Below, one piece after another: positions 8,610 to 62,388 of a stretch of DNA of 64,000 nt. The position numbers and the translations under genes are program-made. Numbering within the stretch: the first letter of the stretch is position 1; every line of letters begins with the position of its first letter. The notes beneath the pieces were generated by a model, which saw only the letters and a list, made by a program, of their open reading frames with translations, searched no databases and had not been told where the DNA came from. Source of the DNA: Candidatus Moraniibacteriota bacterium (lineage in GTDB: Bacteria > Patescibacteriota > Minisyncoccia > Moranbacterales > GWC2-37-73); NCBI GenBank assembly GCA_003507445.1, contig DNVR01000019.1, positions 142,132 through 206,131 on the forward strand. Reading direction: 5' to 3'.

Positions 8610-8876
8610 TCATTTCATTGGGGTTTTCGGGAAAAGCGTAGTTTTTGGAAGTGTCGTTTTTTCTGCCAATGTTGTTTTGGGTAGGGATGTTTTTGGCAAA
8701 ATACTTTTCGTTTTTTCTCTGTGTCCTTTTGGAGCTTTTTTCTTACCAGTTGTTGGAGTGGATGTGTAGCATCTTTCCCCAATTGGTATAGGTTTTCCAT
8801 CTGGCAGGTGCAAGCGACCCTTTTTAAGCGTTATATCACATTGTTCTTCACCATCTAAAAATGTGCCTGTAGACAT
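8610..8876 (-). CDS. Hypothetical small basic protein with LPKTTL repeats
   Basis: Strong SD (ggaggtg) upstream of ATG at 8876. Lys-rich, repetitive C-terminus. Confidence 0.4.
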   Translation of the reverse strand: MSTGTFLDGEEQCDITLKKGRLHLPDGKPIPIGERCYTSTPTTGKKKAPKGHREKTKSILPKTSLPKTTLAEKTTLPKTTLFPKTPMK

Positions 8877-8914
8877 TGGACACCTCCATTATTGAGATAA
8901 AATTAAGGTACTAA

Positions 8915-10675
8915 TTATTTCTTTTCCTTAATTTCTTTTAACATTTTTTCGATGAATTCGTCAACTGGGAGGGTTTGTTGTTCTTTGGTTCCGCGAGTTC
9001 GAATTGCTACTGTTTTGTCATTAACTTCTTTTTCTCCAACCACAATAATATACGGAGTTTTCATTTTTTCAGCCAAGGAAATTCTTTTTCCAAGTGATTC
9101 AGCTTGATCATACATTTCAATTCTGATTTCATTTTCCAATAATTTATTCTTAATTTCTTCGGCATAATCTGCAAATTTTTCAGAAATTGGCAGAACGGCA
9201 ACTTGAACAGGGGAAAGCCAAAGTGGAAATGCTCCAGCAAAGTGTTCGATGAGGAGCATCATAAATCTTTCGTAGGATCCCAAAATTGCTCGATGCACCA
9301 TAACTGGAGAAGATTTTCCTCCTTCGTTATTGGTATATTCCAACTCAAATCTCTTTGGAGTAGCAAAATCAAGTTGTACTGTTGGAATTTGAATTTCTTT
9401 GCCAAGAGAATCTTGAAACATAAAATCTAATTTTGGACCATAAAGCGCAGCTTCTCCTTCGTGCTTAACAGCATTTAGACCCATTTCATCTGAAATGTCC
9501 TGGAGCATTTTTTCGCAAACATCCCAATCAGCAGCTTCGCCAATATATTTTTCTGGATGAGCATAATCTCGCACTGAAAGTGAAACACTGTGATTTTCCC
9601 ACATTCCCAATGAAGTATAAAAATTTTGGATAATTTCTACCATATTTTTTACTTCTTGCTTGACTTGATCGACAGTGCAGAAACTGTGACCATCTTCAAC
9701 TGTGATTGCAATTACACGTTGAAGGCCACCAATTTCTCCGGGCTTTTCATCGCGATATTGCTTTTCACTTTCCATATAACGAATAGGAAGGTCTCGATAT
9801 GAACGAGCTTTGGAAGCAAAAATTTGAGTTTGATGCGGGCATTGCACTGGTTTCATCACATAATTTTGCTTGTAATGTGATGTCACTTGAAAAAGTTCAT
9901 CTCCAAATTTCTGAGCATGTCCTGATTTTTCATATAAATCTATTTTAGCCAAGTGAGGAGTTGAAACTTTTTGAAAACCGTATCCTCGGCAAACTTTTTC
10001 AATATGCTTTTGCAATTCGTCTTTGATAATGGTTCCGTTTGGAGTAAAAAGTGGAAGCCCTGGTCCAACTAAATCTGAAAAACAAAACAAATCTAATTCT
10101 TTGCCAAGTTTTCTATGATCTCTTTTTGCTGCTTCTTCAACAAGGTGGAAATAATTTTTGAGTCCTTCTTTATTTTCAAATACTACTCCATAAATTCTTT
10201 GTAGTTGTTGTTTTTCGGCATCTCCTTTCCAATATGCTCCAGAAATTTTTGTGAGTGCAAAAGCATTGTGCTGAATTTTGCCAGTTGATTCGATGTGTGG
10301 TCCAGAGCAGAGATCCACAAAATGTCCAGATTTATAAATTGTTACAGTTTCATTTCCAGTCTTATGAAGATCATCAATAAGTTCCAGTTTTAAAGTTTGA
10401 TCAAGCTCTTTGAATTTTTCCAATGCCTGCTCAACAGAAACATCAGCTTTTTCAAATGCGTGGTTTGCTTTTATTATTGCTTTCATTTTTTCTTCCAATA
10501 ATGGAAGATCTTCCGGAATCAAAGTTCGTGGAAGCTCAAAATCATAATAAAAACCATTTTCCACAGCCGGTCCAATTCCAAATTTTGCCTCTGGAAACAT
10601 TTCCAAAACAGCAGCAGCTAAGATGTGAGCAGTAGAGTGGCGGAGCAATTCAAGATTTTTCGTGTCGTTTTTCAT
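8915..10675 (-). CDS. thrS: Threonyl-tRNA synthetase (short form lacking N-terminal TGS domain)
   Basis: RHSTAHILAAAVLEMFPEAKFGIGPAVENGFYYDF second-additional-domain motif, class II core motifs and anticodon-binding domain. Length 586 aa. Confidence 0.9.
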   Translation of the reverse strand: MKNDTKNLELLRHSTAHILAAAVLEMFPEAKFGIGPAVENGFYYDFELPRTLIPEDLPLLEEKMKAIIKANHAFEKADVSVEQALEKFKELDQTLKLELIDDLHKTGNETVTIYKSGHFVDLCSGPHIESTGKIQHNAFALTKISGAYWKGDAEKQQLQRIYGVVFENKEGLKNYFHLVEEAAKRDHRKLGKELDLFCFSDLVGPGLPLFTPNGTIIKDELQKHIEKVCRGYGFQKVSTPHLAKIDLYEKSGHAQKFGDELFQVTSHYKQNYVMKPVQCPHQTQIFASKARSYRDLPIRYMESEKQYRDEKPGEIGGLQRVIAITVEDGHSFCTVDQVKQEVKNMVEIIQNFYTSLGMWENHSVSLSVRDYAHPEKYIGEAADWDVCEKMLQDISDEMGLNAVKHEGEAALYGPKLDFMFQDSLGKEIQIPTVQLDFATPKRFELEYTNNEGGKSSPVMVHRAILGSYERFMMLLIEHFAGAFPLWLSPVQVAVLPISEKFADYAEEIKNKLLENEIRIEMYDQAESLGKRISLAEKMKTPYIIVVGEKEVNDKTVAIRTRGTKEQQTLPVDEFIEKMLKEIKEKK

Positions 10676-39236: not shown

Positions 39237-41429
39237 ATGGCAGCAGGAACATTGGACGCAACTATATTTAATGATTTGCTTAACAAGCACACAGCACAAA
39301 TAAGTGCTGAGGTTGAAGTTGAAAAAGAAGACAAGAGAATTGCTAAATGGACACAGGAACACAAGGATAAATTGGCAATTGAAACTGAAGTGCTTGGCGA
39401 GCAGCGTGAAAAAGAGAATGAGATGTTCGAAACTGCTGCCAAGAGTCCTAAAAAAGGAATTGAAAAAAAAGATTCTGTTTTTGAGGGTGAGAGAAATTTC
39501 AAAAAATCCACAGATATGGCTGAAGCTGTTGATCCTCAAGAAAAAGCTCTCAGGGAAGCAAGAAAAATTTATGTCGAAACTGAATTCAAAGAACGAAATG
39601 CTCTTAGGGAAGTTAGGGGTTATTTTAGTCGGGCGCTTGGAAAGGAGGATAAGACAGAAACACCAAATATCGCTGCAGCTCGTATGGCTTATGAAAAATT
39701 ACGTAAAGAAAAGATGAATGGCGAGATTGCCAAACTCGAAAGTGGTACGCTCAAAGGAGATGCTTTGAATACTGAGATCAAGAAATTACTCACTTATTAT
39801 AATACTGGAGCTGCACTGGAATTATATAATGATAGAATTGCAGTAAAAACTGCGCAAAAAAAAGAAACCGAGGGAAAAACAAAGCTTAAAAATACTTGGG
39901 ACAAGGTAACGTTAAAGATGGATCAGGTTGCGGAATTTTATAATAAAAAAGTTCATTGGTCTATAAAAATTGGACTTGCTGCAACCTCTTGGTATCTTGG
40001 TGCTGGTGCATTTAAATCTGGAAAAAACATTTGGGGTGCTTTTATGATGGCAACAGCGGGAGGTGCGGCGTTGGATGGTGCGGCACAATTTACTGATAGT
40101 ATTCTTGATGGTAGGGCGGACAAAAAAAATCTTAAAGAAATTTCCAAAGAAGGTGGCGAGGTTGATTTTGAAAAATTGAGAGGAATCTTGAATCAAAAAA
40201 ATGAAGATATTAATAGAAAAGTTAATAAACATGTGATGCGGGCATATTTTAATAAGACGGTTGCAGTTTGTTTGGCAACAGTAATTGGAGTGCAGGCAGT
40301 TGAGGGCATGGCGCATGCTTTTGAAAAAATGACTGCAGCACCTCCCGTGGTTAGCACCGCTCCATCTGTAGATAATTGGCCAACTCCTCCAAGCACTGGT
40401 ATTCCTGTGGATTTAAAACCAGAATCACCTGAATATATAAAATGGGTGGCTGAACATGGTGGGAAGCCTCCAGTTTCAGCTCAAGATGCTGCTGCGCAAG
40501 CAAAAAAAGCTGCTGAAACTGTTGTTGGTGCTTCAAATAAAGCGGTTGAATCCTTAACAATAGAAAAAGGTTCAAGTATTGAAAAAACATTGATCGATCA
40601 TCTCAAGACTCATGGAATAAAAAATCCAGGAGCTGCAGCACATCGCATGTGGCTTGATTATATGCATGACAATAAAGCTGAGATAATTAAAAAAGTTGGA
40701 GACAATGAATATCACAAGATGCTAAAAGATGGAATGGTTAATGTTAAACCTGGAACGCATATTTTTATAAATGAAAATAATCCGTTGGAGATGAAATTGA
40801 GTAATATTGACGGGAAAATCTCACACCTGAATGGGCATCATTCTGTTGGCAGTGGCGGCGTTGAAAATGGGCAAGGTGTGGGCGCTAGTATTAAACCAAC
40901 TGATATTCCAAAGCCGTCAGCAGCTGCGGTGGTAGGAAATGCTGATGTCTTAGGGTACACTGGGGAAACTCAGCAAAATATTTCAACAGCAAAAGAAATG
41001 TTTAAAAGCGCTAATGCTGAATATATTCAAGCAGCCAATGATGCAACAGATCATCCCGCTGGAGGAGGTGGACCATCGGCATCTCAATATGAAGATATGG
41101 GTCGCGCTGATGAGGCGCGCAAATCGGCAGCTTTGACAGTTGAAAATTTAGCCAATGCAAAAGAGAATTGCTTTAAGGATATAAAAGCAGCGACGAATGG
41201 TATATATAAAGCTACTGGATACAAGTGGGATGATATTAAAAACTTGGATTATAGTTCTGCTTATGCTGATGATAAATTGCGTCCAATTATGAAAGAAATG
41301 GCAAAAGAATATAAAAAAGAATTTGGCAATACTAATAATTTTCCTAATAGTAATACCACTTTTGGGAAATGGCTTTACCGTGTAAAAGAGGTTACTATAA
41401 AAAAACGTTTAGGTATAAATATTGAATAA
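39237..41429 (+). CDS. Hypothetical large protein with central hydrophobic segments
   Basis: 730 aa. Charged N-terminal third, 2-3 predicted TM/hydrophobic helices (IGLAATSWYLGAGAF, GAFMMATAGGAALDGAA, VAVCLATVIGVQAV), Gly/Ala-rich C-terminal region. Confidence 0.45.
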   Translation: MAAGTLDATIFNDLLNKHTAQISAEVEVEKEDKRIAKWTQEHKDKLAIETEVLGEQREKENEMFETAAKSPKKGIEKKDSVFEGERNFKKSTDMAEAVDPQEKALREARKIYVETEFKERNALREVRGYFSRALGKEDKTETPNIAAARMAYEKLRKEKMNGEIAKLESGTLKGDALNTEIKKLLTYYNTGAALELYNDRIAVKTAQKKETEGKTKLKNTWDKVTLKMDQVAEFYNKKVHWSIKIGLAATSWYLGAGAFKSGKNIWGAFMMATAGGAALDGAAQFTDSILDGRADKKNLKEISKEGGEVDFEKLRGILNQKNEDINRKVNKHVMRAYFNKTVAVCLATVIGVQAVEGMAHAFEKMTAAPPVVSTAPSVDNWPTPPSTGIPVDLKPESPEYIKWVAEHGGKPPVSAQDAAAQAKKAAETVVGASNKAVESLTIEKGSSIEKTLIDHLKTHGIKNPGAAAHRMWLDYMHDNKAEIIKKVGDNEYHKMLKDGMVNVKPGTHIFINENNPLEMKLSNIDGKISHLNGHHSVGSGGVENGQGVGASIKPTDIPKPSAAAVVGNADVLGYTGETQQNISTAKEMFKSANAEYIQAANDATDHPAGGGGPSASQYEDMGRADEARKSAALTVENLANAKENCFKDIKAATNGIYKATGYKWDDIKNLDYSSAYADDKLRPIMKEMAKEYKKEFGNTNNFPNSNTTFGKWLYRVKEVTIKKRLGINIE

Positions 41430-61467: not shown

Positions 61468-61539
61468 GCCACCCTAGCTCAACGGTAGAGCTACTGTTTT
61501 GTAAACAGTAGGTTATCGGTTCAAATCCGGTGGGTGGCT
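61468..61539 (+). tRNA. tRNA-Thr (anticodon TGT)
   Basis: Acceptor gccaccc/gggtggc, D-arm agctcaacggtagagc, anticodon loop ttTGTaa, T-loop ggttcaaatcc. Confidence 0.8.
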
Positions 61540-61577
61540 CAAGATGGATAGAGGAATATAAGAGTAGTTTTTAAAAT

Positions 61578-61660
61578 GGGCGGATGGCAGAGCGGTCAAA
61601 TGCTCCGCACTGTAAATGCGGCGCCTTCGGGCTACGGGGGTTCGAATCCCTCTCCTCCCA
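61578..61660 (+). tRNA. tRNA-Tyr (anticodon GTA), long variable arm
   Basis: Anticodon stem ccgca/tgcgg with loop ctGTAaa, long variable arm gcgccttcgggc, T-loop ttcgaat. One acceptor-stem mismatch. Confidence 0.75.
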
Positions 61661-61698
61661 CAGTATAAAACAAAAGAGAAAAATTGCAGAAGTAAAAC

Positions 61699-61970
61699 GC
61701 CGTTGTAGCTCAGTTGGTAGAGCACATCCTTGGTAAACTCCCTGCCCACCATTTAGGAAACTGAATGGCGAATCCCGAATAACGGTTAAAGGCCTTGCAT
61801 TGGGTTCAGACCGTGGCGTGAATAATTTTTTTCGCCCGAACGACTGACAAGGGGAGCTAAGTCCGATGGATATGCTTAATATACAGTCTAATCCTCTACA
61901 ATAGATGCAATATAAAAAATAGAGGTGCAAATGAGGGATGAGGTCACCGGTCCGATTCCGGTCAACGGCT
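61699..61970 (+). tRNA. tRNA-Thr (anticodon GGT) interrupted by ~199-nt intervening sequence (candidate group I intron, 61735-61933)
   Basis: 5' half gccgttgtagctcagttggtagagcacatccttGGT is canonical through the anticodon. The complementary 3' half (ag)ggatg-aggtc-accggtccgattccggt-caacggc-t lies about 200 nt downstream. The acceptor halves are perfectly complementary. Confidence 0.55.
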
Positions 61971-62073
61971 CAGGTTTGAATAAATTAATTATCATATAAC
62001 ATAAAACATATAGCATATAACATGGGATGCAGGGTTGCTCCATGATCAATGCTCCATGTTCCATGAAAATATT

Positions 62074-62304: not shown

Positions 62305-62375
62305 GCGGGCGTCGTATAGTGGTAGTACGTCGGTCTCCAAAACCGTTGGCGTGGGTTCGATTCCTGCCGCCCGTG
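62305..62375 (+). tRNA. tRNA-Trp (anticodon CCA)
   Basis: Anticodon loop ctCCAaa matches tRNA-Trp arm CGGTCTCCAAAACCG. T-loop ttcgatt. rpmG-tRNA-Trp linkage is a conserved arrangement. Confidence 0.8.
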
Positions 62376-62388
62376 CAGATAAATTTAA

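Follow-up and report, generated by a model that had tools for sequence, protein, structure and literature searches.

Introduction

The closest described counterparts of the locus studied here come from three Patescibacteria genomes (GCA_001029635.1, GCA_016700375.1, and GCA_030583745.1), in which tRNA-Thr(GGU) is interrupted between positions 36 and 37 by “divergent group I introns” (PMC13011429, after Castelle et al. 2018). The Rfam model RF00028 misses this class, and Williams’ bacterial model finds it (PMC13011429); the finder in question is tFind (Williams 2020, bioRxiv 10.1101/2020.01.27.920355). ARAGORN calls two of the three published introns tRNA-Arg(GCG) with an insertion at 34/35 (PMC13011429, Table 1). 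Nakagawa et al. placed the Thr introns in the IA clade and not in IC (PMC13011429). The splicing tests in the accessible text of Nakagawa et al. 2026 concern only the Asn and Asp introns of Patescibacteria, which interrupt their tRNAs at 35/36, belong to subgroup IA, and self-splice in vitro (PMC13011429). The published account of the Thr class includes no covariation analysis and no P9.0 or L2-P8 evidence, and the genome analyzed here is not among the three that are listed.

Other described introns share some of these features. The Asn and Asp introns come from the same phylum as the present one but differ in their host tRNA, in the 35/36 site, in a P3 of normal length, in the HNH endonuclease genes that some of them carry, and in being detectable with RF00028. 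The intron of Azoarcus tRNA-Ile(CAU) (subgroup IC3; Aol6.Ile2.5Ug in the Williams seed) also lies at 36/37, where the anticodon pairs with a 3-nt guide. It is likewise about 200 nt long, free of ORFs, and capped by GAAA at P2. In crystal structures, this L2 GAAA loop docks into a receptor in P8. Its core segments read GUAGAGACUA / AAGGCAUAGUCC, as against CGAACGACUG / AAUAUACAGUCU in the present intron, whose P3 has 3 bp rather than 6 and whose P9, unlike that of Azoarcus, has no GNRA loop. Finally, Rba53.Thr.5Ug (Williams 2020 seed) occupies the same site of a tRNA-Thr; its 5′ exon ends in GGU and its guide is UGCC. It differs in having a fully canonical IC3 core that models of the RF00028 type detect, and the Thr 36/37 site has therefore probably been occupied independently by two families.

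The present work concerns a window of 64,000 nt (the whole stretch of DNA that was analyzed) from a Candidatus Moraniibacteriota genome. With a probability that we put at about 0.85, the insert that splits its tRNA-Thr(GGU) gene is a small group I intron without an ORF, a member of a family found only at position 36/37 of tRNA-Thr(GGU) in CPR/Patescibacteria.

The split tRNA-Thr(GGU) gene

The first-pass annotation had read a tRNA-Thr(GGU) gene split in the anticodon loop by a 199-nt insert. ARAGORN, when introns are permitted, agrees and calls tRNA-Thr(ggt) at 61699–61971 with a 199-nt intron at 36/37. The annotated exon and intron coordinates are exact (Table 1), and the 73-nt product spliced in silico is a canonical tRNA-Thr(GGU) cloverleaf according to ARAGORN. 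A pattern consisting of a degenerate 5′ half, a gap of 185–245 nt, and the 3′ half matched once in the window and not once in 100 shuffles. Default ARAGORN did not call the split gene in the window. In combination with Rfam at its gathering thresholds, the default search returned tRNA-Thr(UGU) at 61468–61540, tRNA-Tyr at 61578–61661, and tRNA-Trp at 62305–62376 as the only local tRNAs, and the order Thr(UGU)-Tyr-Thr(GGU) is the one that had been annotated. The gene for ribosomal protein L33 lies 100 nt downstream and is identically encoded on several public contigs; the window sequence is identical to contig DOKX01000004.1 of GCA_003510165.1. The host is bacterial, since EF-Ts, S2, and L33 are encoded in the window. 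No plausible ORF is present in the 199-nt insert, so the intron contains no endonuclease ORF.

In the window, junctions at 36/37 and at 37/38 lead to the same product, the intron and the 3′ exon both beginning with A. Three homologous introns (L017, L010, and L012) start with G or T, so that no junction other than 36/37 yields a proper anticodon loop. The T-loop of the 3′ exon (61951–61957), TCCGATT, is unusual in that position 55, almost universally U, is occupied by C. The same T-loop occurs in L003, L008, and L017. Among the metagenome matches listed, 3 of 111 parsed members have a TCC T-loop; the others have TTC, with one mis-parsed CTC.

Table 1. Exons, intron, and proposed structural elements of the split tRNA-Thr(GGU) gene (window positions).
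Feature	Position	Strand	Description
5′ exon	61699–61734	+	ARAGORN; acceptor stem, D-arm, 5′ strand of anticodon stem, loop through anticodon GGT
Anticodon GGT	61732–61734	+	U36 (61734) is the -1 nucleotide
Intron	61735–61933	+	199 nt; preceded by U61734, final base G61933
P1	61732–61746	+	Exon GGU 61732–61734 with internal guide GCC 61744–61746; loop AAACUCCCU
P2 hairpin	61747–61770	+	GAAA tetraloop L2 at 61757–61760; 9/9 pairs changed on both sides
P3, 5′ strand CCC	61774–61776	+	With GGG 61851–61853; pseudoknot with P7
P4, J4/5, P5	61782–61814	+	ACGGUU 61782–61787 with GACCGU 61809–61814; J4/5 AAA; P5 hairpin 61791–61806
P6 hairpin (GGCG ... CGCC)	61815–61836	+	5/6 pairs changed on both sides
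P7, 5′ strand GACUG	61842–61846	+	With CAGUC 61884–61888; proposed guanosine-binding helix
P3, 3′ strand GGG	61851–61853	+	Pairs with CCC 61774–61776
P8 hairpin	61854–61877	+	GAAA-tetraloop receptor of the 11-nt type, CUAAG ... UAUG; stem covaries
J8/7 and P7, 3′ strand	61878–61888	+	AAUAUA (family consensus AAGAUA), then CAGUC
P9.0, 5′ strand AU	61891–61892	+	With AU 61931–61932, directly before omega-G
P9 hairpin (CCUCUA ... UAGAGG)	61893–61925	+	6/6 pairs changed on both sides
P9.0, 3′ strand AU, and omega-G	61931–61933	+	Omega-G 61933 is the last intron nucleotide
3′ exon	61934–61970	+	ARAGORN; A37, G38, 3′ strand of anticodon stem, variable loop, T-arm, 3′ strand of acceptor, discriminator T

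A family at one site of one tRNA

Homologues were sought with a gapped pattern based on the exons in one genome per GTDB species. The scan gave 27 loci, which comprise eight homologous inserts in CPR genomes, one unrelated insert labelled as archaeal, and tandem tRNA genes. The labels of the CPR carriers include Moraniibacteriota, Moranbacteria UBA2282, Parcubacteria GW2011_GWD2_38_11, Taylorbacteria, Nomurabacteria, and Saccharibacteria, and a long invariant core is common to all eight copies. A second pattern, built from this core, was used to scan metagenomes; it fixed the GGG side of P3 and part of the invariance of P3, P4, and P7. At least 119 metagenome contigs match the core pattern, and at least 109 of them parse as a split tRNA-Thr(GGU). 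In 109 of 109, the insert lies at 36/37, with U at position -1 and omega-G at its end, and the terminal G is also found in 10 of 10 genome and window copies. The splice site, the U before the insert, and the G that ends it, all pointed out by the first-pass annotation for the window, are the same in every family member that could be parsed. Intron lengths range from 170 to 258 nt among the metagenome matches listed, which leaves no room for an endonuclease gene in any listed member. The longest of these (about 254–258 nt; L146:3871–4140 and L057:605–872) owe their extra length to structured insertions and not to ORFs, in P9 in L146 and in the P5 and P6 loops in L057.

ARAGORN handles these genes poorly even when introns are permitted. 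Among the 119 listed metagenome members (L035–L153), the gene was named Thr(ggt) in 55. It was misnamed tRNA-Arg(gcg) with an intron at 34/35 in 37 listed members, and others were called Pro, His, Leu, or Gln.

Close relatives of the locus exist both with and without the intron. The contig L003 has an intron of 190 nt that is homologous to that of the window, and the two introns differ by compensatory exchanges in two hairpins, two of these exchanges being in P9. Together with L008 and L017, these two form a clade whose flanks are 77–82% identical and whose 5′ exon is the same in all four. The flanks of the window are also 82% identical to those of Parcubacteria GW2011_GWD2_38_11. In four further relatives (L001, L002, L005, and L006), with flanks 85% identical to the window, tRNA-Thr(GGU) is uninterrupted, and its anticodon loop, TTGGTAG, equals that of the predicted ligated product. 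The anticodon stem of this intron-less allele is different (CGCCC/GGGCG), so a simple, exact loss of the intron does not account for this allele.

The surroundings of the gene vary among the same relatives. In L001 (8654–9900), as in L002, L005, and L006, the cluster order is Thr(GGU, intron-less)-Tyr-[204-aa ORF]-Thr(UGU), and the cluster of L003 lies at 8691–9901; in the window, the order is instead Thr(UGU)-Tyr-Thr(GGU plus intron). The ORF of about 200 aa among the relatives’ tRNA genes (L001:9208–9822; L003:8876–9484) is absent from the window. It lies outside every intron, and its product gave sub-threshold N-terminal Pfam matches of a helix-turn-helix or transposase-like kind, the best of which (E = 4e-4) fell below the cut-off. 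The archaeal-labelled locus, L009:3314–3558 (JAGGVH010000020.1, labelled Micrarchaeota archaeon), is a tRNA-Thr(GGU) whose anticodon loop carries an unrelated insert of about 180 nt with the 21-nt direct repeat TTTCAACCCCAAAGAAAGACA. This insert is presumably an archaeal intron that is spliced by proteins.

Secondary structure and covariation

The structure was evaluated on an alignment (A1) of 112 distinct sequences, of which GTDB genomes supplied 8 and metagenome contigs over 100. The elements follow one another in the order P1-P2-P3-P4-P5-P5′-P4′-P6-P7-P3′-P8-P7′-P9. With the P3/P7 pseudoknot included, 93.3% of the cells are paired in the whole structure, compared with 76.9% in shuffles and 31–46% when the partners are slid. 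Changes on both sides are seen in 37 of 56 pairs, and on five measures, none of 500 shuffles reached the observed values. The extension of P1 and the helices P2, P5, P6, P8, and P9 covary. RNAalifold independently recovers the anticodon stem of the exons together with P1, P2, P4, P5, P6, P7, P8, and P9.

In P1, the anticodon pairs with a guide GCC that is invariant. The three pairs are GC in 112, GC in 112, and UG in 111 of the 112 homologues, the last being the U.G wobble of the 5′ splice site. P3 is paired in 100% of cells, with one-sided C-to-U changes only, its GGG side having been fixed by the search pattern. P4 is invariant except for a change from U.G to C-G in 14 sequences, whereas four of the five P5 pairs are changed on both sides. 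The pairing of cgactg with cagtc that had been suggested at first pass is present as P7; this helix is 100% paired and invariant in the alignment, an invariance that is partly set by the search pattern. Compared with the canonical GACUA/UAGUC, to which it aligns, one A-U pair is replaced by G-C, and the helix can be read as A-(C bulge)-GACUG/CAGUC-U, parallel to the canonical G-(A bulge)-GACUA/UAGUC-C, with no variation there. Many other members of the family have the same J8/7 sequence as the window, AAUAUA. At the P5 pair that closes onto J4/5 (A1 columns 76/118; window 61791/61806), G.U is found in 55 sequences and A/C in 40, an isosteric exchange of the wobble type. In canonical group I introns, J4/5 contacts the P1 wobble pair.

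Two long-range features emerged from mutual information. One is P9.0, a group-I-specific pairing in which the two nucleotides after CAGUCUA covary with the two before the terminal G. In these columns (231–232 with 360–361 of A1), 99.1% of the cells are paired, and for each pair 49 sequences are changed on both sides; the first pair is GC in 61, AU in 43, UA in 5, and CG in 1, and the second is CG in 55, UA in 49, and UG in 7. The other feature links the second nucleotide of the L2 loop to the receptor in P8. Of the 74 sequences whose L2 loop is GAAA, 62 have a P8 3′ strand of the UAUG type; of the 38 with a different loop, 3 have it (Fisher p = 2e-15, without correction for phylogeny). In 35 of 38, other GNRA loops at L2 go with plain P8 helices. 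This covariation fits the tetraloop-receptor rule, by which a GAAA loop goes with an 11-nt receptor. A P10 pairing (CCCU with AGGG) is strong in the window; it was rejected as a family feature, being no better across the family than in a shuffled control.

Match to group I models

RF00028 was the model with which the first-pass annotation had proposed to check the locus, and the failure of covariance models to find a group I core was to indicate a disrupted pseudo-tRNA. RF00028 gave no group I match at the gathering threshold, nor at E ≤ 10 on 61650–62020, an outcome that, taken literally, points to the pseudo-tRNA. It is not counted here against a group I intron because RF00028 has a known blind spot for the Thr(GGU) 36/37 class: its seed contains no bacterial sequences (Williams 2020, bioRxiv 10.1101/2020.01.27.920355), and the same miss is reported in PMC13011429. 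A sequence-only HMM of the published 26-sequence seed alignment, searched with nhmmer, also gave nothing at the intron.

Covariance models were built from Williams’ 26-sequence seed alignment with its published consensus columns and with none of the family sequences included; the seed structure holds (93.4% paired). Seed gaps were filled with N to preserve the published columns, since re-alignment of the trimmed seeds with MAFFT distorted the manual alignment. The core-only model R3, made from 10 published non-IC3 bacterial tRNA/tmRNA group I seeds, gave the insert as its top match in the whole window, although weakly (16.2 bits, E = 0.12). Family members scored 17–34 bits, with 33.7, 31.4, and 31.4 at the top, and 19 of 21 loci had E < 0.1, the best being 6e-6. 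The window copy is the weakest of the members tested, and its assignment to group I is based on the clear homology that links it to members with higher scores. The core model R1, made from all 26 seeds, aligned over its full length to 61771–61890 with 12.7 bits, in the register of the side-by-side correspondence given below; this was the second-best match over 128 kb (E = 0.49), and E was 0.0015 on the a-priori insert alone. The unrelated insert of L009 scored 2.5 bits with a group I core model. The full-length model R2 (P1–P9, 160 positions) was rejected as a useful test. It gave the insert only 5.3 bits, probably because trimming had removed all learned insertions, and its best match in the window (40946–41021, 14.3 bits, E = 0.016) is spurious, the alignment skipping the whole P3–P7 core.

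The likeness to published cores is visible side by side. GAUA-ACGGUG-AAA corresponds to GAAUA-ACGGUU-AAA in the family, ACCGU-GG to ACCGU-GGCG, and GACUA...UAGUC to GACUG...CAGUC. The closest core segments are those of the seeds related to the Asn and Asp introns, Mba143.Tyr.4Ug and Pgr210, which are among the seeds of R3, the model that detects the Thr family. These seeds have GAUAACGGUGAAA, ACCGUGG, and AAGAUAUAGUCC where the family has GAAUAACGGUUAAA, ACCGUGG, and AAGAUACAGUCU; the P4–P5 stretch closely resembles that of Mba143.Tyr.4Ug, and the family consensus of J8/7 and the P7 3′ strand matches the canonical one. On these model scores and alignments, the family can be shown to be related to bona fide group I introns. 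The group I reading of the first-pass annotation is supported from several sides, namely the covariation in the family (including P9.0 and L2-P8), an independent covariance model, and the class described in PMC13011429.

Discussion

The most likely behavior of the intron is self-splicing. In this model, the tRNA cluster would be transcribed and the intron would fold into P1–P9 with the P3/P7 pseudoknot, a fold that the L2 GAAA tetraloop docked in the P8 receptor may help to stabilize. The guide GCC would pair with the anticodon GGU and place U36 in the U.G wobble. An exogenous guanosine, presumably bound in P7, would then attack after U36. P9.0 would bring the terminal G61933 to the same site, and the free 3′-OH of U36 would attack after this G, which would ligate the exons. 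The expected product in the cell is a normal tRNA-Thr(GGU) with the anticodon loop UUGGUAG.

A group I descendant may instead have become inactive in this particular genome and left a pseudo-tRNA, with the ACY codons read by tRNA-Thr(UGU) or by another genomic copy. The window copy has the weakest group I core score of the members tested, a J8/7 (AAUAUA) that departs from the consensus AAGAUA, and C55 in its T-loop, and its nearest relatives include an intron-less gene. However, AAUAUA is shared with many other members, and the window copy has kept every helix intact, as well as P9.0, the U.G wobble, and omega-G. Within the window clade, moreover, exchanges in P2 and P9 are compensatory and the exons are identical and perfectly paired, although the flanks have diverged to 77–82% identity, which indicates continued selection. 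An inactive intron is accordingly regarded as improbable.

Removal of the insert by proteins, either as an archaeal-type BHB intron or as an RNA similar to group I introns but strictly dependent on a protein cofactor, is considered very improbable. The equivalence of the 36/37 and 37/38 junctions in the window would suit it, as would the 3-bp P3, which suggests a fragile core that perhaps needs help in folding, and L009 carries an unrelated, archaeal-labelled insert at the same place of tRNA-Thr(GGU). On inspection, however, the BHB motif is absent: towards the 3′ end of the intron nothing is complementary to the UUGG of the loop, and no 4-bp helix can be formed there. BHB introns usually lie at 37/38, whereas only the 36/37 junction works in L017, L010, and L012, and the host is a bacterium. 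The U.G, omega-G, P9.0, and tetraloop-receptor pair, all conserved, are ribozyme features. As for a mobile element other than an intron (a MITE or an IS fragment) or a chance match of tRNA halves, the insert is short, AT-rich, and devoid of an ORF, as such readings would have it. They are ruled out by the absence of terminal inverted repeats and of a target-site duplication at 61734/61735 and 61933/61934, by the absence of the exon pattern from 100 shuffles, by the insertion of more than 100 homologues in this tRNA at precisely this nucleotide, and by the covarying structure.

The self-splicing group I intron favored here agrees with the published Thr(GGU) 36/37 class, as far as a comparison by description allows, in gene, anticodon, site, phylum, approximate length, the lack of a homing endonuclease, and invisibility to RF00028. 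Many family copies also receive the same characteristic mis-call by ARAGORN, Arg(GCG) at 34/35. We infer that the family is this published class and that its members would share sequence identity with the three published introns. The class is thus already known, and the finding is confirmatory and not surprising. What is added here is the size of the family and its strict site-specificity, a structure backed by covariation, P9.0, the L2-P8 covariation, and the P3 of three pairs. A bolder reading would see in the family a minimal group I subclass that is structurally set apart by a 3-bp P3, an altered P7 and J6/7, and a 3′ splice site selected by P9.0 and not by P10; its residence in this gene may then mean that the supply of the tRNA is controlled through splicing or that a folding factor of the host is needed. 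This reading is unlikely; strict long-term residence without a homing endonuclease is what suggests possible control of the tRNA-Thr(GGU) supply by the host.

Implications

Default tRNA finders and Rfam miss the split tRNA-Thr(GGU), and ARAGORN misnames most members even when introns are permitted. Genomes in which the gene is missed or misnamed would be scored, wrongly, as lacking tRNA-Thr(GGU), and this distorts estimates of completeness and conclusions about codon reading. The family also comprises more than 100 variants at one position of one tRNA, with no endonuclease gene and with a non-canonical core. These traits suit it, as a compact natural example, for testing how small the core of a group I intron can be.
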